UHGV virus genome: UHGV-0072281
Length of the DNA stretch: 64,000 nt
Reading direction: 5' to 3' (one strand)
Origin: a virus
The position numbers and the translations under genes are program-made. The first letter of the stretch is position 1. Every line of letters starts with the position of its first letter. This document shows, piece after piece, positions 13,535 to 45,011 of this stretch. The notes below the pieces were generated by a model. The model saw nothing but the letters and a program-made list of their open reading frames with translations. It searched no databases and was not told where the DNA came from.

Positions 13535-14044
13535 ATGGCAACCAAAGACATTTCTACCCAAGATGCTCGTCCCGCTGCTGTTAAGCGCTCCGCAGAAGCG
13601 GCAGTAGCTTATAGCCAAGATGACTCTTATCAGGTAAACCTTATTGCTGCGCAGTTAGACGAAGCAGGGAATACCATCGGTACCAACAAACCGAAAAACA
13701 CGTCGGAAGCAGACGACGCTTTCCGTAAACTGCATCAGTCTTTCCGTAGCCTGTTTGAACTGCGTGGTCAGGCGTTTATCGACGCTTTTAACGTTTTCGT
13801 TGCTGCTGCGATTAAACACAAGCGTAGCATCTTCTATTACCCGAATGTGAACTACCACCTGGATTGGTTCCACGATTCTGCTGAACGTGAAACCTACGTG
13901 GTGTTTATCAACATGCTGGTACGTTTTGCTAACTCTCAAGATAAAGCAAACTTCGCACAGCGTGACAACGTTAACCGTCTGCTGCAACGCGTAACTGACC
14001 CAGAGCTGCAACAGCTGCTGGCGTACTGCTTCAACGCGGCTTAA
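13535..14044 (+). CDS. hypothetical protein
   Basis: 169 aa; AAGGA SD; followed by terminator. Confidence 0.8.
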   Translation: MATKDISTQDARPAAVKRSAEAAVAYSQDDSYQVNLIAAQLDEAGNTIGTNKPKNTSEADDAFRKLHQSFRSLFELRGQAFIDAFNVFVAAAIKHKRSIFYYPNVNYHLDWFHDSAERETYVVFINMLVRFANSQDKANFAQRDNVNRLLQRVTDPELQQLLAYCFNAA

Positions 14045-26433: not shown

Positions 26434-27705
26434 ATGGCAAATTTCGCAAAAACTCGCGCCGCTCGTGAATCGATGGAAGCGGCCGATGAAGTAATCGACG
26501 GTATCAGCAACGTTGAACCGGCAGAAGAGAACCTGGACGTCCAGCTTGCAGACGTAGCCTCTATCGACGGTCAGCTCGAACAGCTGGAAACCGACGGTGA
26601 AACCCTGGCTGCCGATACTGAGCGTACTGAAGACGCTATCGATCAGGCGGAAGAAGCCGTTGCTAACGGTGAAGAAATGCCGGAAGAAGCGGTTGCCCTG
26701 CAAGAAGTGGCTCAGGAATCCATCTCACGTCGTTGGAACCTGGAACGCACCAAACTGGCTCGCGAATCCTATCGCCGTGGCCGTGGCATGACTGCTGCTG
26801 CGCAGGAAGGCTGGAAAGAAACCCTGAAAGGTCTTTACGAGCGTTTCATTCAGTTCTGTAAAGAAGTGATTGCGAAGATCAAAGACCTGAAACTGAAATA
26901 TTTCAACGTCGGTAAGACCGCACAGAAACGTGCGAAGAAATATCAGGAAATGCTGCGCAAGCTGGGCAAACAGAAAAATGATACCATCTCCGGTGGCTTC
27001 ATTACTAAGCTGTCCATTGAAGGTAAATTCGATGCAGCTGGTTCTATCGCTATCGCGAAAGAAGTAACCTCTGGTAAAGCTAAAGGTGCTATTAGCGCAC
27101 TGGAAAAACAAGCTGGTGAAGCTGTTACTGCTGTAACCAAAGGTGACGATGAAGCATTCAAAGCAATGCGTGGCGATCAGCCGGTAGAACTGTTCGGTAA
27201 AGCAGCGTCTAAACTGCATAACCTGCCGAACTTTGAAAACGGCGATGCGTCTAAACTGCTGGCTCTGCCGGGTAACGCATACGTTCAGTCCGGTACTAAA
27301 GAACTGGCTGGCGGTCACAAATTTACCGCTGTTGCATTCATGAGCACTGGCGATGCCTCTGACGATAAAGACGTGAAAACTCCGTCTGTTTCTGAAATGG
27401 CTGGCGCTGCTTCTTCTCTGGAATCTATCGGTAAAGGCTTCGAAGCTGTACTGAAAGACTTCCGTGCTTACGATGCAGAGATTGCAAAACTGCAACAGGC
27501 CGCTGAGAAAGCTGCTAACGCGCTGAACAGCGAAAAAGACGAAAGCAAGTGGGATGGCCTGCGTAATGCTCGCCAAGCTGCTGACCAGTCTGTTAAGAAC
27601 TACCAGACCCTGAACCGTGCCGTTAGTTATGTTGCTAACACCGTAATTAGCGGTTTGAACGGTTACCTGGGCGCTGGTATCGGTGCTTACGAAAAATCTA
27701 AGTAA
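26434..27705 (+). CDS. abundant-looking paralogue A: acidic N-terminal propeptide-like region, coiled-coil middle, conserved C-terminal GAGIGAYEKSK
   Basis: 423 aa; AAAGGAAA SD; visibly enriched for ctg/cgt/ggt/aac/gaa codons; N-term MANFAKTRAARESMEA..; motif ALQEVAQESISRRWN. Confidence 0.9.
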   Translation: MANFAKTRAARESMEAADEVIDGISNVEPAEENLDVQLADVASIDGQLEQLETDGETLAADTERTEDAIDQAEEAVANGEEMPEEAVALQEVAQESISRRWNLERTKLARESYRRGRGMTAAAQEGWKETLKGLYERFIQFCKEVIAKIKDLKLKYFNVGKTAQKRAKKYQEMLRKLGKQKNDTISGGFITKLSIEGKFDAAGSIAIAKEVTSGKAKGAISALEKQAGEAVTAVTKGDDEAFKAMRGDQPVELFGKAASKLHNLPNFENGDASKLLALPGNAYVQSGTKELAGGHKFTAVAFMSTGDASDDKDVKTPSVSEMAGAASSLESIGKGFEAVLKDFRAYDAEIAKLQQAAEKAANALNSEKDESKWDGLRNARQAADQSVKNYQTLNRAVSYVANTVISGLNGYLGAGIGAYEKSK

Positions 27706-27785: not shown

Positions 27786-29048
27786 ATGGCGAATTTCTAC
27801 AAAAACAAAATTGCTCGTGAGTCAATGGAAGCGAACTCTACTGTCGTTCCAGATGGTATTGAGCTGCCAGCAGAGTCTATCGAAGGTACTCTGGCTGATA
27901 TCGAGCACGACACTAAACCGATCGAAGCGCTGGACGCTGACGCAGAGCTGCTGGCGGAAGACGGCGACGAAACCGATGCGCAGCTGGACGTTCTGGACGA
28001 AGCTCAGGCTTCCGCTGACGGCGAAGGTGGTGAAGATGGCGACGATCAGATGGACGCTGAAGAAGACATGCCGGACGACGCTGCTAAAGCGCTGGATGTT
28101 GCTCAGGAATCCATCCGTTCTCGCTGGAACTTCGAACACCGTTCTTCCGTTGCTCACGAATCTTACGGCGCTCGTAACCGTCGTCAGGTTGCTCGTGAAT
28201 CCCTGTGGGACGACATTAAAGCCTTCCTGAAACGTTTCTGGGAATGGCTGAAAGAGCAAGGCCGCAAACTGAAAGATCGTTGGCTGAAATTCCACAACCA
28301 GGGTAAATCTATCCAGGCTCGTGCGAAGAAATACGACGAAGCTATTCGTAAACTGGGCAAACAGAAGAAAGATGAAATCTCCGGTGGTTTCATCAAGTGC
28401 CTGTCTGTTGACGGTAAGTTCGTTGGTAACGATGTACCACGTCTGAAAGACGCGATGAGCCGTGTTTCTTCTTTCTACAGCAAACACGTTCCAACTCTGC
28501 TGGCTTCTGGTACCGCTCTGGTTGCAGACGTATCCAAAGCTAACGGTGCTCAGGCTGAGCAACTGCGTGCTGAATTTGCTGCGCTTTCTAAAGAAGATGG
28601 CGACAAAGAATTCCGCCTGGGCAACATGGTTATGCAGACCAACTTCGATGAAGATGGTGGCTTTAGCTTCACTCACGTTGAAGCAGAAAATGCTGTTGAA
28701 ACCAGCGTGAAAACTCCGTCTGTAAGCGAACTGGCTAAACTGAACGGTTTCTTCACCGATCTGGGTAAACAGATTGAGAAGAACGTTCTCGAATACCGTA
28801 AGACCGAGCAGGCTCGTGAGAAGTTCGCTCAGTCTATCGAGAAACTGCTGAAAGAAATCGATAACGTCAAGATCGATGAAAAACCAGAACTGACTGAAGG
28901 CGTACGTGTTGCACGTCGCTATGTTAACAGCATTCGCAGCGCAGTATCCCTGTGCGAGAAAGTTGTTGCTTCTGCTCAGAAAAACCTGGTTAGCGGCGTT
29001 AGCGGTTATATCAGCGCCGGTATCGCAGCGTACGAAAAGTCTAAGTAA
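27786..29048 (+). CDS. abundant-looking paralogue B of 26434-27705
   Basis: 420 aa; N-term MANFYKNKIARESMEA.., motif ALDVAQESIRSRWN, C-term SAGIAAYEKSK; same codon bias. Confidence 0.9.
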   Translation: MANFYKNKIARESMEANSTVVPDGIELPAESIEGTLADIEHDTKPIEALDADAELLAEDGDETDAQLDVLDEAQASADGEGGEDGDDQMDAEEDMPDDAAKALDVAQESIRSRWNFEHRSSVAHESYGARNRRQVARESLWDDIKAFLKRFWEWLKEQGRKLKDRWLKFHNQGKSIQARAKKYDEAIRKLGKQKKDEISGGFIKCLSVDGKFVGNDVPRLKDAMSRVSSFYSKHVPTLLASGTALVADVSKANGAQAEQLRAEFAALSKEDGDKEFRLGNMVMQTNFDEDGGFSFTHVEAENAVETSVKTPSVSELAKLNGFFTDLGKQIEKNVLEYRKTEQAREKFAQSIEKLLKEIDNVKIDEKPELTEGVRVARRYVNSIRSAVSLCEKVVASAQKNLVSGVSGYISAGIAAYEKSK

Positions 29049-29118: not shown

Positions 29119-29168
29119 AAAAATAATTTCAGATATATATTACTTAAGTGAGATTACACAGTAATCTC
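29119..29168 (+). promoter_or_regulatory. conserved promoter-like element, copy 1 (core TTTCAGATATATATTACTTAAGTGAGA)
   Basis: Near-identical to 37372-37423 over ~50 nt; located between terminator and next gene. Confidence 0.5.
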
Positions 29169-29203: not shown

Positions 29204-29845
29204 ATGAGCCGCATTAATTTAACTGATTTTGTTGATGGTGTTGTAACTTTAGAAAGCAAAGGCGCGACCTTAGTTGCTCCGAATGCCAAAGTGCTGGATT
29301 TAAATCCTGTAGAAGTGATTGCTATTTCTACTTGGTTACGTTTGTCTTACGACAAGAAATTCGAAGGGTTAGAGAAAGAATCTCTAACTGTCAATACTCG
29401 TGAGTTTGTCTTTAAAGAAATCGACAGCGAAAAATTGGAAGCTTTCTCAAAACAGATGGTTAATCCACGTACAGACGGTGATGTCGGTATGCGCGAATAC
29501 AGTGGTGAAAAATACCATGCGTTTACTGATGCCCATGTTGCGTTGTGTGAGAAAGGTGAAGGGAGATTCGTTGCTGTTTGTTTCTTCCATTTAATCGCGC
29601 CGAAACAGAAAGATTTGCTGTTTGAAATCGCGAAGGATTCGGCAGAAGCGGTTATGGATACGATTGTTGAACTTTTCGAAGCGATGCGTGATATTCCGCG
29701 TGTGTTAGAAGTAAGTGAGGGACCTATGGATAGCTTTAAAATTCTACCATTGATTTATAGTAAGGACCATGAAGAGGAATGTACATTCGTCCTGTTCAAT
29801 GGTTCGATGGCTGCGTCTGTAAAACAGTTCGCTGCATCCATTTAA
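29204..29845 (+). CDS. hypothetical protein
   Basis: 213 aa from ATG 29204 with AGGAGAAA SD. Confidence 0.8.
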   Translation: MSRINLTDFVDGVVTLESKGATLVAPNAKVLDLNPVEVIAISTWLRLSYDKKFEGLEKESLTVNTREFVFKEIDSEKLEAFSKQMVNPRTDGDVGMREYSGEKYHAFTDAHVALCEKGEGRFVAVCFFHLIAPKQKDLLFEIAKDSAEAVMDTIVELFEAMRDIPRVLEVSEGPMDSFKILPLIYSKDHEEECTFVLFNGSMAASVKQFAASI

Positions 29846-36386: not shown

Positions 36387-36418
36387 GTTATGTCGACAGC
36401 AACCTAAAGGATTTGTTA

Positions 36419-37219
36419 ATGAGCAATTTACTTACTTTCCGCATGTCTGGTCAAACGTTAATGCAGATTGACGAGTACGAAAAAGAACATTTCGCTAAAC
36501 CGTCCAAACTGTTAGAACGTTGCTTAAAGGTTATTCCAGGCGGCGAGCACTGTCAGCTAGATTTCGTCATGGCGTCTTCTGCTGACAAAACGGTCTCTGT
36601 TATCTACACGGTTGACGGAGTACAGGGCCATCGCTTATTACCGATTGAAGAAAAAGGTTCTTTGGGTAATTTGTTGTTCTTGCACGCAATCACGACTGCG
36701 GTAGTGACGGGAGCACTGGGAGCGCAGTACGGTTTCGCCTATTGTTATTTCTACGCACAGAAGTTGGCGAATGCGGTAGTTCCAGGAGAACCAGAAACGT
36801 ATCCGAAGTATATCGAACGTTTGCTTCCGACGCATTTTGCTGAGTCTGACGACTATGAGTTCAATGCTTTCCGTTTCACGATGATTGGCGAAGCACGCGA
36901 TCCTGAAAACACCATTGCGTTACGTGCTGTTGTTCGTTACGCAGTAATTTCGTCTGACAGCGGAATGGCAAGCAACTTCAACGAAGTGTTCCCGGTTATG
37001 CAACTAGGTCCGTATATCACGTTTAACGCGTATGTACCGTTTACTTGTCAGTTAATCGGCCCGCAGGATAATGATTCTATCCTCCCGATTACTGAAGAGA
37101 AAGGTCTACATATTCGTGATGCCGTAGAAGTCATCAACGATAAACGTTTTACGATCTCATCGAAAAGCGGCATCGCCGATGAAGAACTTGCGGTTGTGAA
37201 CAAAATGCAAGTGATGTAA
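36419..37219 (+). CDS. hypothetical protein
   Basis: 266 aa from ATG 36419 with AAAGGA SD. Confidence 0.8.
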   Translation: MSNLLTFRMSGQTLMQIDEYEKEHFAKPSKLLERCLKVIPGGEHCQLDFVMASSADKTVSVIYTVDGVQGHRLLPIEEKGSLGNLLFLHAITTAVVTGALGAQYGFAYCYFYAQKLANAVVPGEPETYPKYIERLLPTHFAESDDYEFNAFRFTMIGEARDPENTIALRAVVRYAVISSDSGMASNFNEVFPVMQLGPYITFNAYVPFTCQLIGPQDNDSILPITEEKGLHIRDAVEVINDKRFTISSKSGIADEELAVVNKMQVM

Positions 37220-37225
37220 AATTAT

Positions 37226-37264
37226 CCCGTTACCCACAAAGGTAACGGGATGTCCTTTTATTTA
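37226..37264 (+). terminator. intrinsic terminator
   Basis: Hairpin cccgttacc-cacaaa-ggtaacggg then tccttttattt. Confidence 0.7.
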
Positions 37265-37371
37265 CTCGTAAACGCGTCTTAGACGCTGTTTTACACCTTA
37301 AGACGATTAATGGTGTTTAAAAAATAAAAGGTCGTCAGAATGCGATACAGCGCGTTTTAGAGGGTGTTTTA

Positions 37372-37423
37372 ATTAAAATATTTTCAGATATATATTACTT
37401 AGGTGAGAGAATTACGTAATACT
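37372..37423 (+). promoter_or_regulatory. conserved promoter-like element, copy 2 (core TTTCAGATATATATTACTTAGGTGAGA)
   Basis: Matches 29119-29168 at nearly every position; 48 nt upstream of ATG 37456. Confidence 0.5.
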
Positions 37424-37455
37424 CATTTATCGTATACCTAATTAGGAGCTATATC

Positions 37456-37599
37456 ATGATTTCTGTAAAACACAAAAAAGCTATCTTCGCTGTTGTTATC
37501 GCTGTTGTTCTGGGTTGCCTGTACCTGGATATCGACAAAGGCTACGACACTTGCATCGACAACGGTAATTCCGTTGCGCAGTGCACTGGTCGTGGTTAA
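37456..37599 (+). CDS. small single-pass membrane peptide (47 aa)
   Basis: MISVKHKKAIFAVVIAVVLGCLYLDIDKGYDTCIDNGNSVAQCTGRG; AGGAG SD; optimal codons; own promoter-like element and terminator; too short for the ORF track. Confidence 0.65.
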   Translation: MISVKHKKAIFAVVIAVVLGCLYLDIDKGYDTCIDNGNSVAQCTGRG

Positions 37600-37603
37600 T
37601 GTA

Positions 37604-37636
37604 TAAGGCACCTTCGGGTGCCCTTAATTTTTTTAT
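37604..37636 (+). terminator. intrinsic terminator
   Basis: Hairpin ggcacc-ttcg-ggtgcc then cttaattttttt. Confidence 0.75.
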
Positions 37637-37653
37637 TAATTGGAGCATAAACG

Positions 37654-38469
37654 ATGATTACTATTAAAGATTATTTTCCGCGTGGGTTGAGCAATGAAAA
37701 CTTCGTTCCAACTGAAGACATTGCCATCGTTGCAGAGTCCAGCGATAAGTCTTTTAAACTCTACTTGAGTACGGCAGCAGGAAAATCCACTCTTATCCTT
37801 CGTGAACCTGAAGTGATAAGCATCTGCTCGTTTGGGGGTGGTGTAGAAGGAACGATTAACTGGTTGAAATCCAGAATGCATCGTTTGCTTATCGTGAATA
37901 CCGATCCTGTGATTCGTTTACAGCAATTGAAATCGTTGAATGAAATTATCGTCGGATTATTGGAACATGAAACGTTTGGTAATGCTGAGATTGCGGAAGC
38001 GATTAAATCTGTAGAACTAATCGAGTGGAGCGATATCGAATACGAACGTGCTGGGTTATTCGCAATGTACGGTGATGATAATCCCGTTGCGTTTGCACAA
38101 ACGTTGGATAATGTTACCGTAACAGCGCGCGTATTGTTTGGTTTACAACGTGTTGAGTTTGAACTGAAACACGTCTACGTGAGCAATAAACCGGAGATGG
38201 TGGAGACATTGATTCGTGCTTTCGCATACCCGTTAGACGGTGAATGGGAACAGCAGATTAATGAAGCGTTAGAAGCCATGCATTTCCTGGCTGAAACGTT
38301 AAGGAAGGATGAGAAATTGAAAGGTCGTGTTTATCCAGAACACGATTTTGTTTGTGAAGAATGTGGAGCACAGTATCAAATCCGTGTTCCTTTAACCGGC
38401 CTAACATTCCCGCAAGCCAACGTGCAATGTAAGGAATGTGGTCATGTTCAATACGTAGCGATTAAATAA
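37654..38469 (+). CDS. hypothetical protein with C-terminal zinc-ribbon-like Cys pairs
   Basis: 271 aa; GGAG SD; C-terminal CEECGAQ...CKECGH. Confidence 0.8.
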   Translation: MITIKDYFPRGLSNENFVPTEDIAIVAESSDKSFKLYLSTAAGKSTLILREPEVISICSFGGGVEGTINWLKSRMHRLLIVNTDPVIRLQQLKSLNEIIVGLLEHETFGNAEIAEAIKSVELIEWSDIEYERAGLFAMYGDDNPVAFAQTLDNVTVTARVLFGLQRVEFELKHVYVSNKPEMVETLIRAFAYPLDGEWEQQINEALEAMHFLAETLRKDEKLKGRVYPEHDFVCEECGAQYQIRVPLTGLTFPQANVQCKECGHVQYVAIK

Positions 38470-38475
38470 AAGCAA

Positions 38476-38518
38476 CCCCTAATCCCGAAAAGGATTAGGG
38501 GTACACTTTATTTATTTT
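38476..38518 (+). terminator. intrinsic terminator
   Basis: Hairpin cccctaatcc-cgaaaa-ggattagggg then T-rich run. Confidence 0.8.
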
Positions 38519-38541: not shown

Positions 38542-38697
38542 ATGAGAAATGTTAATGCAATGCTTAACCAGGCATTTGTTAACCAACAGCGTTTTCAGGA
38601 ACGCTTAGCACAACTTAAAACACAACACAGACCACCACAACAAAGAGTGGTTAAGAGCAAGTTCGGCGAAATGGTTTTCGAAAGAAAATCTTTCTAA
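38542..38697 (+). CDS. small basic protein, paralogue 1 of 3 (51 aa)
   Basis: MRNVNAMLNQAFVNQQRFQERLAQLKTQHRPPQQRVVKSKFGEMVFERKSF; AAAAGGAAA SD; not in ORF track (<60 aa). Confidence 0.55.
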   Translation: MRNVNAMLNQAFVNQQRFQERLAQLKTQHRPPQQRVVKSKFGEMVFERKSF

Positions 38698-38847: not shown

Positions 38848-39015
38848 ATGTTCGACAGTATTACACAAATTTTTAACACTACCGTAAACAATCACGCTCA
38901 GCAAGCGAAGTTTAATGAACGATTAAGGGAAGTTCAACAATTAGGATTAAATAAAAGATTAAAATCTTCCAATAATCCTCGAGTACAGATCTTCACCGAA
39001 AGGAGAAGTAACTGA
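38848..39015 (+). CDS. small basic protein, paralogue 2 of 3 (55 aa)
   Basis: MFDSITQIFNTTVNNHAQQAKFNERLREVQQLGLNKRLKSSNNPRVQIFTERRSN; shares QLG-NKRLK-S-N---QI-TE-RS with paralogue 3. Confidence 0.6.
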   Translation: MFDSITQIFNTTVNNHAQQAKFNERLREVQQLGLNKRLKSSNNPRVQIFTERRSN

Positions 39016-39111: not shown

Positions 39112-39285
39112 ATGAACAATGGTTACTACTTTACTGACAAAATGCTTGCAGAACAATATGCAGCAAAAACCAATTTACAGCAACGTATCTACGAGTATAG
39201 TCAACTCGGTGCGAATAAACGATTAAAACCATCAACCAACCGTTTCACACAGATAATCACTGAAAAAAGGAGTGAACGCTACTAA
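39112..39285 (+). CDS. small basic protein, paralogue 3 of 3 (57 aa)
   Basis: MNNGYYFTDKMLAEQYAAKTNLQQRIYEYSQLGANKRLKPSTNRFTQIITEKRSERY. Confidence 0.6.
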   Translation: MNNGYYFTDKMLAEQYAAKTNLQQRIYEYSQLGANKRLKPSTNRFTQIITEKRSERY

Positions 39286-41533: not shown

Positions 41534-43819
41534 ATGAAAGATACCCGAATCTCTAATTTAGAGAAACTCGTAGAAGCCGGTACTAGTCTGGCCCAAAACG
41601 TCATCGGCAACAACACCGCCAGCGAAATGTGGAAGACGATTGTTGCAGGCGAGTCCGTACGTAGCAACGCAAAAGTATTTGGCGCTCTGCGTGACGAAGC
41701 ATCACAGCACTATGCCAACGCTTTTGGCGGCAAGAAAATGTCTCATGCTGCGACCGTCGCTTCCGCAATGATTCTGGGCGTAGCTAACCACGGTAAAGAC
41801 CTGCAAGAACGTGTTGCCCAGGAATACGCTAAGCCGGAATTCCACACCAAGTATAACCTGGATATTGGTATCCCTGGTGCGCAAGGTGGTGATTGGGGTC
41901 GTGAGCGTATGGTTGTTGCTCAGGAATACTACAGCAACAAAGACTACGACAAAAACTTGGGCCTGACCTGGACCCTGAACGTACGTGCTCTGGAAACTCA
42001 GTCCAAGTTTGCTGAAACACTGTTCCCGACCATTACCGTTGACACCAACGATGTTGGTATTACCGTACGTACTAAAGTGACTACCGTTTCTCGCGGTATC
42101 ATGAACGCGCTGCTGAGCAAAGACGTCGTTGAAGATCATCGTCGTCCGCTGCACAACGCACTGACTGACCACACCGTTCTCCAGGACGAAGCGATCAACA
42201 TCGTTCCTTACGTAATGGAAACCGGTGAAAACCAGGAATACTTCGTAAGCGAAGATCTGGTTCCGAACGAAAAAGTTCGCCTGGGTCGTGTACCTCCGTA
42301 TCCGACTAACTACCTGAGCTTTGCAAACGACACGCTGAACCTGTTCCAGCTGTCTGCGCATCCGGGTATCGTTCAGGAAGGTTACGATGAAACTGATGAA
42401 ATCGCACCGGGTTGTGCTCTGGGCAGCCTGCTGATTTCTGTACGTAAACCGGCCGAAGAAGCGAAAGCGGGTAAATTCATCAAACTGCACGTTCGTGACA
42501 TGCAGTTCGCAACCTTCCAGCGTCCTGCTGAAGGTGACGGCCGTGAACTGGTTCTGCAATTCCGTCGTACCGCGTTCTCTCTGAATGCGAAAACCACTGA
42601 CTGGAAAGGCGACGCTATTCCGGCACTGCAAGCACTGGGCCAGAACTCCTACACCCTGCGCTACGTTATCACCATCACCATGTCCCTGTTCACCAGCGGC
42701 CAGTTCGGTGGTAAAGTAGACATTTCCGGCCACAAACTGGAAATCGAAGGTCTGTACGATGCAACTGGTAACAAAGTTGATACCAAGTCTGGTACCGGCA
42801 AAGTTATCCTGGATGGCCTGAAACTCGAACTGATGGGCTGGCGCTTCGATGGTACTCGTACCAACGAAAACCGTCGTACCCAGGGTCTGCTGCTTGACCC
42901 AATTTGGGAACAGGAAAACTACAAACTGCAATACGGTTCTCCGATTCTGACCAAGTCTCCGGTTGGTGTTGAATACGACGACACTGAACGTCTGGATGAC
43001 CTGATCTCTGCGGTGAACATCCGTAACGAACAGCTGGCTATTACTCAGACGCTGTCTTACACTGAAGCAGTACGTAACGCAGCCGCTGCGATGATCACTC
43101 CGTGGGACAAACCGGCTATCCGTGGTCTGGGCCGTCACTGGGTTGCTCCGTGGTTCAAAGAGTCTGACTACAAAGTCGATGAAGTTGTTCAGTCTCTGGA
43201 TACCAAAGAAGCGCTGATCAACGCTCGTCAGGGTCTGTTGCAGCGTATCGGTAGCCAGGTAACTCAGGCTATCCAGGATTCTCGTTTCATTCCTGCACTG
43301 CGCCTGCTGACCGCTGATCCGGACATTCTTCCGAAAGTTATTATCGCAACTGACGAACCGACTGCATCCATGCTGCTGCTGGTTCAGGGCGACCAACGTC
43401 TGCTGGGCGACCGTTATGAATACGAAGTCGTTACCACCAACGATGACCGCTGGCGTATCTACAACGCAGCTGACGATTCCTGGACTCGTCGTCTGCAATG
43501 GTTCCTGAAAGTTCCGACTGCGGACGATGGTTCCTACTGCGTACTGAACTGGGGTAACCACTTCTGGTCTCCGATCATGGTTACCAACATCAACATTCAG
43601 CGTAACGGTTCTACTTCTAAAGAACTGGCTGTACAGCCGCGTAACGCGCATATCTGCCACTGCCCGATCACTGGTCTGATTTGGGTTAAAGGCATCACCA
43701 AACTGGTTGAAGAAAAACTGGCTTACAACGTTTCTGTAGAACAGAACGGCCAGAAACAAACCGAAGGTGGTGTAGCAGGTAACCTTGCTGTCGAAGGCAA
43801 AGCTACCGCTGGTAAATAA
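41534..43819 (+). CDS. candidate major capsid protein
   Basis: 761 aa, size class of phiKZ-type major capsid proteins; strongest optimal-codon bias in window; AAGG SD; strong terminator downstream; S/A/G-x-E motifs in N-terminal ~100 aa; no homology check possible. Confidence 0.45.
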   Translation: MKDTRISNLEKLVEAGTSLAQNVIGNNTASEMWKTIVAGESVRSNAKVFGALRDEASQHYANAFGGKKMSHAATVASAMILGVANHGKDLQERVAQEYAKPEFHTKYNLDIGIPGAQGGDWGRERMVVAQEYYSNKDYDKNLGLTWTLNVRALETQSKFAETLFPTITVDTNDVGITVRTKVTTVSRGIMNALLSKDVVEDHRRPLHNALTDHTVLQDEAINIVPYVMETGENQEYFVSEDLVPNEKVRLGRVPPYPTNYLSFANDTLNLFQLSAHPGIVQEGYDETDEIAPGCALGSLLISVRKPAEEAKAGKFIKLHVRDMQFATFQRPAEGDGRELVLQFRRTAFSLNAKTTDWKGDAIPALQALGQNSYTLRYVITITMSLFTSGQFGGKVDISGHKLEIEGLYDATGNKVDTKSGTGKVILDGLKLELMGWRFDGTRTNENRRTQGLLLDPIWEQENYKLQYGSPILTKSPVGVEYDDTERLDDLISAVNIRNEQLAITQTLSYTEAVRNAAAAMITPWDKPAIRGLGRHWVAPWFKESDYKVDEVVQSLDTKEALINARQGLLQRIGSQVTQAIQDSRFIPALRLLTADPDILPKVIIATDEPTASMLLLVQGDQRLLGDRYEYEVVTTNDDRWRIYNAADDSWTRRLQWFLKVPTADDGSYCVLNWGNHFWSPIMVTNINIQRNGSTSKELAVQPRNAHICHCPITGLIWVKGITKLVEEKLAYNVSVEQNGQKQTEGGVAGNLAVEGKATAGK

Positions 43820-43872: not shown

Positions 43873-43884
43873 CTTTCTATTATT

Positions 43885-43911
43885 TTTCGGATAGATATTA
43901 TTAAAGAGAGA
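43885..43911 (+). promoter_or_regulatory. conserved promoter-like element, copy 3 (TTTCGGATAGATATTATTAAAGAGAGA)
   Basis: 22/27 identity to copies 1 and 2; again directly downstream of a terminator. Confidence 0.4.
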
Positions 43912-44000: not shown

Positions 44001-45011
44001 ATGAACCGTCTTGATATTGATGTGGTACCCAGTGTTACTGACCGCTCGTTGTATCAAAAGTCAGGACTACAAAAACTCATCACTTTTGAGAATAATACTG
44101 GTGTGCCAATTTACGTCACTGAAACCAGTGGCGGTAGCTTTATTTTAACTCCGTCCAAAAGCACGGCTGATGAGCATGGGGTTGTTGTTTATGTAACGTA
44201 TCAATCGTTCGGAAATCTGGCTAACCTGAACGGGTTTGCAGAAGTCTTACCAGAAAAACAATTCACTAAATTTTGTGCAGATTTAAAGGAGAAAGGAGAG
44301 GTCACACTCCGATACGTCGTCGACGATATCGGTGCTTTATTACGTGGGGACTTGGTTGTATTGAAGCAGTTAGGATTTGCATTTTCAATTACACCAGTTC
44401 GATTAGAAAGTACACCACCGAGTGTAAGGCCAGGAGGTGAGAGAACTGAATTTACATTGGGTGTTATTGTTGTGCAGCGTTACGACGATCCCGAATTATA
44501 TCGTTGGATTAGATTCTACGGAACGCGCATGGAAGTACAACCGATTCTATCGCGGTATTACGAACCGGGTGTGTACATGGTAATAGGAGGAGGAGACAAA
44601 GTAGAAGGGAGCAGGATGATTCACTTTGAGTTCGATGACTTATTGTCACCGTTCCGTGTTTTTAAAGATAAAGAAACAGCCACTGCGTTTCGATGGCAAG
44701 AAACGTTACCGGATATTCACGAGATAAAGGAAAAGCTGGAAAGTCAATACAGAGAAAAATTAGAAAGTTTGGATTCGGCAAAAGACAAACTGGAATTAGA
44801 ACACAAAAAACAACTACAGAATTTGGCTTTAGAAAAGGAGCGTTTGACTCTAGCGTATAAACAACAAGAACTAGAAGCAAAGTCTCGGGCAGAGGCACGA
44901 AAAGAATTCTACGAGACTCGTTCTTACATTCGTAAAGATGGGTCAGACCTATTTAAATCAGTCCCTGCGTATCTGGCGGCGGGTGTCGCATTTATAGGGA
45001 TGCTAAAGTAA
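44001..45011 (+). CDS. hypothetical protein with C-terminal coiled coil and terminal hydrophobic segment
   Basis: 336 aa; C-terminal KLESQYREKLESL...KQQELEAK then AYLAAGVAFIGML; AT-rich codon usage. Confidence 0.75.
   Translation: MNRLDIDVVPSVTDRSLYQKSGLQKLITFENNTGVPIYVTETSGGSFILTPSKSTADEHGVVVYVTYQSFGNLANLNGFAEVLPEKQFTKFCADLKEKGEVTLRYVVDDIGALLRGDLVVLKQLGFAFSITPVRLESTPPSVRPGGERTEFTLGVIVVQRYDDPELYRWIRFYGTRMEVQPILSRYYEPGVYMVIGGGDKVEGSRMIHFEFDDLLSPFRVFKDKETATAFRWQETLPDIHEIKEKLESQYREKLESLDSAKDKLELEHKKQLQNLALEKERLTLAYKQQELEAKSRAEARKEFYETRSYIRKDGSDLFKSVPAYLAAGVAFIGMLK

Follow-up and report, generated by a model that had tools for sequence, protein, structure and literature searches.

A conserved 47-residue peptide gene of an SPN3US-like jumbo phage, encoding a putative early envelope factor with a predicted disulfide-loop tail

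The open reading frame located at 37456..37599 (plus strand) of the window, that is, of the whole 64,000-nucleotide stretch of DNA analyzed here, is a real gene under selection. It encodes a 47-aa peptide (MISVKHKKAIFAVVIAVVLGCLYLDIDKGYDTCIDNGNSVAQCTGRG) and adds a member to a family that had been catalogued before (PHROG 8574, the SPN3US gp66 family). Judging by its sequence features, the product is most likely an early membrane- or lipid-anchored peptide carrying a small periplasmic disulfide loop. The family is already known as one of hypothetical proteins under PHROG 8574, and what is added here is the assignment of its promoter to the early type, a codon optimality above that of the capsid gene, an anchor that is interchangeable between members, and an invariant Cys-loop tail.

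Gene, family and genomic neighborhood

The occurrence of this reading frame goes beyond chance, since the peptide matched PHROG 8574 over its full length (residues 1–47 on profile positions 1–47 of 47, E-value = 3.4e-23), the annotated frame was the only open one in 12/12 diverse homologues, and pairwise dN/dS values of the gene were 0.14–0.33, with synonymous sites close to saturation. The 47-aa ORF and its translation agree with the preliminary description of this DNA, and the conservation of the frame in relatives, named there as a check, was found. Its statement that the peptide was unannotatable by length does not hold: the homologues are annotated CDSs in GenBank, the family is catalogued in PHROGs, and the window gene itself had already been called in the Logan collection. 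The strong Shine–Dalgarno (SD) sequence mentioned there was also read from the sequence (AGGAG, 37444–37448, plus strand, 7 nt 5′ of the ATG). The tail had pN values of 0.12–0.31, versus 0.28–0.51 in the N-terminal half, so that the C-terminal half is under tighter constraint. The Rfam scan revealed no RNA family at the peptide locus, and an RNA element in place of a peptide was rejected on this basis. A sub-threshold match to the fluoride riboswitch (37118–37186, minus strand), located inside the upstream gene, was taken as chance.

The annotated homologues, designated "hypothetical protein", included SPN3US_0066 (gp66, ACQ60_gp200), CHRISDB_82 (gp82) and HUXLEY_81 (gp81); the members from Erwinia phage ChrisDB, from Huxley, from Kwan (gp81) and from SPN3US were full-length, with sizes of 45–47 aa and identities of 43–56%. 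The tblastn search detected the gene in 61 phage records, which belonged to the Seoulvirus and Machinavirus groups and represented jumbo phages of Salmonella, Erwinia, Escherichia and Proteus; most of these records carry an annotation of the gene as a 45–47-aa hypothetical protein. When 5.8 billion proteins were searched by profile, approximately 31 clusters were obtained, all of 45–51 aa, and an exhaustive HMMER search over 1.84 billion representatives retrieved only the family and one further protein, P0033, which is considered below together with the tail. Peptides with 100% identity were present on IMG/VR contigs of 151–225 kb. None of the 185,579 bacterial and archaeal species genomes carried the peptide gene, and the existence of cellular homologues was rejected accordingly. 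The family is confined to SPN3US/Machinavirus-like jumbo phages, and the window, in which genes for RNA polymerase beta-like subunits and for a capsid protein of the phiKZ type are present, belongs to a phage of this kind with its own RNA polymerases. One family member, P0010, was carried by a 21.8-kb contig (NCBI TPA) labelled Salmonella enterica; more probably than a chromosomal copy, this contig represents DNA of a jumbo phage that entered a bacterial assembly through a carrier state or contamination.

Searches of Pfam, NCBIfam and PADLOC, the PDB sequence search and Foldseek against the PDB gave no significant match for the peptide. Weak matches either covered the hydrophobic segment only or were sub-threshold (Rz-like spanin, E = 0.042; AimP, E = 0.11; melan-A; CRF receptor). 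An arbitrium-like signalling peptide was rejected: only the signal-peptide region matched AimP, and the invariant tail opposes the diversification expected of such a peptide. In the literature search, no published data were found on SPN3US gp66, nor any expression, localisation or phenotype data for the family.

Upstream of the peptide gene lies the end of an inner-body/structural module, in which a homologue of gp64, a head–tail joining or neck protein (PMC5105663), is followed by a 268-aa homologue of SPN3US gp65 (36413..37219, PHROG 8163). Downstream, a 271-aa gene (37654..38469) represents the counterpart of SPN3US gp70 (identity = 23%, E-value = 4e-13), which has been reported as an essential non-virion protein (PMC5105663), and its product has a C-terminal CxxC…CxxC zinc ribbon. 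Beyond it there are three small paralogous genes and then a helicase gene on the other strand. These tandem paralogues (38542..38697, 38848..39015 and 39112..39285), with hairpins between them, encode 51–57 aa with the basic pattern …F/LxxRLxxL…RLK… and resemble SPN3US gp71/gp72 (48 aa). The homologues of the peptide gene occupy the same place, with the gp65 homologue ahead of them and the gp70 homologue and the helicase behind. No endolysin, holin, spanin, fibre or receptor-binding gene was found in the neighborhood of the peptide gene in the window.

In many relatives, the stop codon of the peptide gene overlaps the ATG (TAATG) of a 60-aa gp67-family gene (PHROG 14868), an arrangement pointing to translational coupling of the two genes, which may also form a functional pair. 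The gp67-family products are acidic, look cytoplasmic and end in …QEIY (L003 3129–3311, which is SPN3US gp67; L002 3090–3272; L019; L023–L026); in ChrisDB gp83, a member of the same family, the annotated start is apparently too early. In the window, tblastn revealed no gp67-family gene, and a partner of this family was rejected for the window; a terminator follows the peptide gene instead. Compared with the SPN3US gp66 family, the window gene shares the tail, the position, the sequence TTTCAGATATATATTAC at the operon head and the codon optimization, whereas it differs from SPN3US in being monocistronic with a terminator, in lacking the coupled gp67-family gene and in having the lipobox Cys.

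Promoter element, terminators and codon usage

The peptide gene forms a self-contained unit, as had been described, in which a promoter element, an SD sequence, the ORF and a terminator lie between two terminator hairpins. The upstream intrinsic terminator hairpin (37223..37252), with a 12-bp stem and 6 GC pairs, terminates the preceding 268-aa gene (dG = −19.1 kcal/mol, z = −5.39; 0/200 shuffles folded as well). The downstream intrinsic terminator, consisting of GGCACCTTCGGGTGCC and a T-run (37607..37635, plus strand), has its hairpin part at 37607–37622 (dG = −11.6 kcal/mol, z = −2.4), and the same gene-then-terminator arrangement is present in Huxley-type relatives. The hairpins 37223–37252 and 38475–38502 score as terminators on both strands, and the flanking genes are all on the plus strand. 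The 5′ UTR of the peptide gene is without stable structure and folds no better than shuffles (z = +1.2); given this leader fold, a 5′-UTR hairpin common to both promoter copies was dropped.

The preliminary description was right in assigning the gene a promoter-like element of its own, but the element is not of the sigma-70 type, and its phage-specific nature had been overlooked. From the upstream terminator to the ATG, the sigma-70 scan was empty, which ruled out a promoter of this type for the peptide gene, and the element matches a phage early promoter. It is represented by AAAATATTTTCAGATATATATTACTTAGGTGAGA (37375..37408, plus strand) with the core TATATTAC at 37391–37398, and the 40-nt intergenic element containing it (37369–37409) is the only stretch of the region with a DNA identity of more than 90% to SPN3US-like genomes, each of which carries several copies. 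In the window, a second copy was found at 29120–29153 (0.00 copies expected by chance) and a weak third copy at 43878–43911, each copy being located 3′ of a terminator and 5′ of an SD and an ATG. The copy at 29120–29153 directly follows a terminator and T-tract and precedes a 213-aa gene (29204..29845), and the weak copy is located after the terminator of the major capsid gene and precedes a 336-aa gene (44001..45011). The core 17-mer TTTCAGATATATATTAC was identical upstream of the SPN3US gene and, in most other relatives examined, at the head of the small-gene operon containing the gene.

The predicted early promoter consensus of phages N1M2, OBP, 201phi2-1 and phiKZ, with the core TATATTAC, has been tabulated (PMC7058600). 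The sequence TTTCAGATATATATTACTTAGGTGAGA fits the consensus of N1M2, OBP and 201phi2-1 and contains the phiKZ core, and the sequence features of phiKZ-type early promoters were found here, namely, a conserved AT-rich motif (…TTTCARRYAKATATTAY…) that is present in multiple copies, intergenic and located at operon heads. A review on the RNA polymerases of jumbo phages places the center of such motifs close to −10 relative to early starts, names the injected virion RNA polymerase as the enzyme reading them, and states that they were confirmed in every case in which transcripts were profiled (PMC7598289). Since the motif matches the consensus and the window encodes RNA polymerase beta-like subunits, we infer that the element is a phage-specific early promoter of the virion-RNA-polymerase type, its timing being deduced from the motif. 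Transcription would start near 37404–37408, and a monocistronic transcript of approximately 230 nt from near 37404 is predicted. For the SPN3US-like group, the start and the polymerase dependence of phiKZ-related early promoters were not found mapped in the literature.

The Fop value of the peptide gene (E. coli-type optimal-codon set) was 0.93, ranking first among the 48 window genes, and exceeded those of the phiKZ-type major capsid protein (0.85) and of two internal head proteins. When 46-codon windows were drawn at random from the genes of the window, only 0.1% of them attained this value. In 8/8 relatives examined, the homologue had the highest Fop among its neighbors. The optimal codons reported in the preliminary description were strongly borne out, although the excess over the capsid gene had escaped it. 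The peptide gene is apparently very highly expressed, as far as codon usage indicates. The next most codon-optimised genes after it were those at 13535..14044, 26434..27705, 27786..29048 and 41534..43819, which encode a 169-aa PHROG 7825 protein, two paralogous internal head proteins and the major capsid protein; codon optimality suggests abundant production of the 169-aa protein as well.

Anchor, lipobox and conserved tail

The hydrophobic helix and short Cys-containing tail described earlier correspond to residues 9–24, which are hydrophobic, followed by Cys33 and Cys43. In the family alignment of 34 sequences, the N-terminal half was variable and consisted of a basic stretch (consensus HK[KR]AI) followed by 16–19 uncharged residues; the basic n-region of the window peptide contains K5, K7 and K8. 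As basic residues precede the anchor, an N-in, C-out orientation is predicted.

Residues 1–21 (37456..37518, plus strand) comprise an n-region, an h-region and a lipobox according to the PS51257-type rule of PROSITE (K/R in the first 7 residues, lipobox [LIVMFWSTAG]2-[LIVMFYSTAGCQ]-[AGS]-C, Cys at 15–35), with which the window peptide agrees in full (K5/K7, an uncharged h-region and V17-V18-L19-G20-C21). The lipobox V18-L19-G20-C21, with its Cys codon at 37516–37518 (plus strand), is predicted to be cut by signal peptidase II, the residue at +2 being Leu. In Enterobacterales, Leu at this position predicts outer-membrane sorting (Lol avoidance rule). Membrane targeting had been recognized in the preliminary description, whereas the lipoprotein signal VLG|C21 had been overlooked. 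From these signals, lipidation of the window peptide and its cleavage to a 27-residue outer-membrane lipopeptide are probable; C21 could also simply sit in a transmembrane helix.

The lipobox was not conserved across the homologues: Cys recurred, in divergent subclades, in the same alignment column of 16/34 members, of which 14 passed the whole lipoprotein rule (14/34 of the family), and the SPN3US, Huxley and phiEaH2 types have V/S/T/M at this position. The UniRef label for the phage Kwan member is 'Lipoprotein'. As the lipobox Cys is absent from over half of the family, including SPN3US, lipidation cannot be essential to the function of the family. The window junction VLG|CLYL is closest to the non-lipobox Huxley type AFG|SLYL, and this resemblance suggests that the lipobox Cys was gained or lost more than once. 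Signal peptidase I cleavage of Cys-less members in general was set aside, the residue at −1 not always being small among the 34 sequences; it may occur in the Huxley type (AFG|S) only. A structure in which residues 22–28 form an amphipathic beta-strand, combined with signal peptidase I cleavage, was also rejected: AF2 gave a continuous helix 4–35.

The lipobox of the window phage, together with the weak match to PHROG 4297 ('Rz-like spanin', E = 0.042), would be in line with an outer-membrane spanin component (Rz1-like) or another late lysis lipoprotein. This is, however, highly improbable: the match covers the hydrophobic segment only, no adjacent, overlapping or embedded i-spanin ORF was present in the window, the mature part is without proline, whereas o-spanins are proline-rich, the lipobox is absent in half of the family, and the promoter is of the early type.

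The predicted periplasmic tail (residues 30–47; 37543..37596, plus strand) is conserved, with C33, G37, S39, C43, T44, G45 and R46 invariant and Y30, N36 and G47 at least 90% conserved, which corresponds to the family motif Y-x-x-C-x-x-NG-x-S-x-x-x-CTGRG-stop. In the AF2 model, obtained with a 33-sequence alignment (mean pLDDT 86), a helix 4–35 is followed by an NGNS turn and a short helix 40–44, and Cys33 and Cys43 flank the turn. Given this geometry, the tail probably contains a C33–C43 disulfide, and a Cys pair with nine residues between its members fits an oxidising compartment. The occurrence of family members with either a lipid or a transmembrane anchor argues for the tail being the functional part and for its putative target being reachable from both membranes.

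It should be noted that the same features bear on the alternative that the peptide, instead of binding a protein, inserts into lipid to disturb or organize membranes, like entericidin, thionin or disruptin, either as a membrane-active toxin or as a component of the early phage infection (EPI) vesicle. The high abundance implied by codon usage would be compatible with such an action, phiKZ-like phages, SPN3US among them, build an early compartment bounded by lipid (bioRxiv 10.1101/2024.03.24.586471), and two weak signals below threshold recall a stapled helical hairpin of the thionin/viscotoxin type. These signals, however, were insignificant (Foldseek E > 4; Pfam below the cut-off and in a different protein), and the net charge of the mature tail is not cationic but acidic to neutral. 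Moreover, the hydrophobic half is poorly conserved and the polar tail invariant, whereas the reverse would be expected of a peptide directed at lipid, and an action of this kind is considered quite unlikely.

P0033 (L028 448–1593, Logan SRR21621036) is a 381-aa metagenomic protein with four tandem AYxxCIGNG[NA][ST]xxQC loops, which are closely like the tail of the peptide and are preceded by signal-peptide-like, membrane-spanning-looking segments; its Pfam Thionin match was sub-threshold. The loop may represent an extracytoplasmic Cys-loop module, or the likeness may have arisen by convergence, so that P0033 provides a lead and no proof of homology.

Putative role and comparison with known envelope factors

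Among the functions listed in the preliminary description, an envelope role (superinfection exclusion or inhibition of an envelope component) is the most plausible, whereas its holin/antiholin-like reading found no support: the promoter motif is early, no endolysin, spanin or holin gene is adjacent, and selection acts on the tail and not on the transmembrane segment. No holin family was matched in the Pfam, PHROGs and NCBIfam scans, and in place of the endolysin/spanin neighbors and late expression characteristic of holins, the surroundings are a neck/structural module, the gp65/gp70 homologues, small genes and a helicase. The peptide is consequently not favored as a holin or spanin, and from the comparison of these features envelope protection or superinfection exclusion is more likely than lysis.

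A lysis-timing regulator of the antiholin type would act through its tail, which would bind the periplasmic domain of a class III-type holin and delay lysis, e.g., on superinfection. In phage T4, lysis is delayed when RI attaches to holin T at its periplasmic domain, and rI is likewise transcribed early. A single N-in/C-out anchor with a conserved periplasmic tail would suit this function; furthermore, lysis by phiKZ is slower at high multiplicity, and a lysis-inhibition system has been suggested (PMC12894885). The peptide gene, however, has no endolysin, holin or spanin gene close by, whereas the lysis genes of phiKZ and their regulator are clustered in one cassette (PMC12894885). The match to PHROG 4297, the sole one to a lysis family, is insignificant and concerns the transmembrane region only, and the extreme codon optimization suggests bulk stoichiometric use over a regulator. 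A role in lysis timing is therefore regarded as unlikely.

According to the best explanation, which we put forward tentatively as a possibility falling somewhat short of probable, the product is an abundant early exported peptide whose tail protects or seals the infected envelope, e.g., in superinfection exclusion. The virion-RNA-polymerase promoter would fire directly after DNA entry, the locus acting as a monocistronic early unit; the unstructured leader of approximately 50 nt, the AGGAG and the extreme codon optimization would lead to heavy translation of an mRNA of approximately 230 nt ended by the hairpin terminator. On export, the product would cross the inner membrane while its basic N-terminus stays on the inner side. 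In the window phage, the lipobox VLG|C21 would direct lipidation and cleavage to a 27-residue lipopeptide, and in about half of the family the same tail would be held on an uncleaved transmembrane anchor. The helix–turn–helix tail of approximately 18 residues, with its C33–C43 staple and CTGRG-COOH end, would bind a periplasm-accessible target stoichiometrically. We conjecture that the purpose is superinfection exclusion or resistance to lysis from without, achieved by blocking the receptor complex or the peptidoglycan hydrolase of the incoming tail, as with T5 Llp or T4 Spackle.

Several findings stand against this explanation. The lipobox Cys is missing in over half of the family; the gene is located between the neck-protein module and non-virion genes and not beside a receptor-binding gene, as known exclusion lipoprotein genes are; and even the smallest exclusion lipoprotein characterised so far is twice as large as the mature part of the peptide. 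In addition, the coupling to the cytoplasmic-looking 60-aa gp67-family gene is unexplained by an exclusion model, and the early timing is predicted from the motif.

The early promoter, the high expression and the conserved periplasmic tail would also suit an inhibitor of a host envelope machine, serving to reshape the cell or to disarm a defence and not to exclude phages. Candidate targets would be peptidoglycan synthesis/hydrolysis, Tol-Pal, Lpt/Bam, flagellar/pilus assembly or a membrane-bound abortive-infection effector. The position of the gene, which heads a block of small early genes next to the counterpart of the essential non-virion gp70, is in favor of host takeover of this kind. However, no similarity to known inhibitors was found, the PADLOC and Pfam searches being empty, no specific target is indicated, and except for the target this reading overlaps with the best explanation. 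We consider it rather doubtful.

A further version of envelope protection is offered as a speculation, and its correctness would be somewhat surprising: SPN3US/Machinavirus-like, nucleus-forming jumbo phages may flood the periplasm within minutes with a disulfide-stapled mini-domain of 23–27 residues (C-x-x-NG-x-S-x-x-x-CTGRG-COOH), carried on an interchangeable lipid or transmembrane anchor, which would represent a new class of tiny envelope-locking factors. Its target would be the peptidoglycan hydrolase or ejection apparatus of the incoming tail, or a trans-envelope host machine. If true, this would be a means of exclusion, or of defence against lysis from without, unrelated to Llp/Cor, Imm and Spackle.

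For early envelope handling and superinfection exclusion by nucleus-forming jumbo phages, the peptide gene, conserved in jumbo phages of the four host genera named above, is a compact and tractable candidate; its invariant, predicted periplasmic motif is tiny and could be made synthetically. If the peptide blocks phage entry, this would matter for the design of jumbo-phage cocktails and would provide a minimal scaffold binding an envelope target; if it has no measurable effect, it is one more small hypothetical phage gene.

The documented analogues are T5 Llp, the Cor family and Rtp45, which are small, early, disulfide-containing periplasmic exclusion lipoproteins (PMC9586334, PMC12685063); Llp has a Cys11–Cys58 disulfide and binds stoichiometrically to the periplasmic face of the receptor (PMC9586334, PMC12685063, bioRxiv 10.64898/2026.03.26.714494). 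The likeness would be that of a phage-encoded small lipoprotein made early; the window gene has a lipobox and an early-promoter motif, from which lipidation and timing are predicted. The mature proteins of that group have approximately 55–61 aa, compared with approximately 27 aa in the window peptide; their genes are located beside a receptor-binding gene, whereas the window gene is beside the gp65 homologue, with gp64 upstream; and they have a lipid anchor, whereas half of the gp66 family has a transmembrane anchor instead. No Llp/Cor/Rtp45 match was obtained in Pfam and PHROGs, and the PDB sequence and Foldseek searches revealed no significant match to the solved structures of Llp and Rtp45 (PMC9586334, PMC12685063). 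Membership of the Llp/Cor/Rtp45 families is thus not supported.

The entericidins EcnA/EcnB and comparable tiny lipoproteins of enterobacteria have 41–48-aa precursors with a lipobox and mature lipopeptides of approximately 21–27 residues. They resemble the window peptide in precursor size, lipobox and mature length, but the entericidins, which are chromosomal toxin/antidote pairs, are without the Cys-pair tail, and the Entericidin family of Pfam (PF08085) gave no match at E <= 1. T4 Spackle and Imm, early exported small proteins of a virulent myovirus, guard an infected cell against further phages; in the case of Spackle, the lysozyme of the incoming tail is inhibited in the periplasm. Both are larger than the peptide (83–97 aa), neither is a lipoprotein, and sequence or fold similarity to the peptide is absent, so that the comparison is one of analogy only; a Spackle-like, periplasm-spanning target would tolerate either type of anchor.
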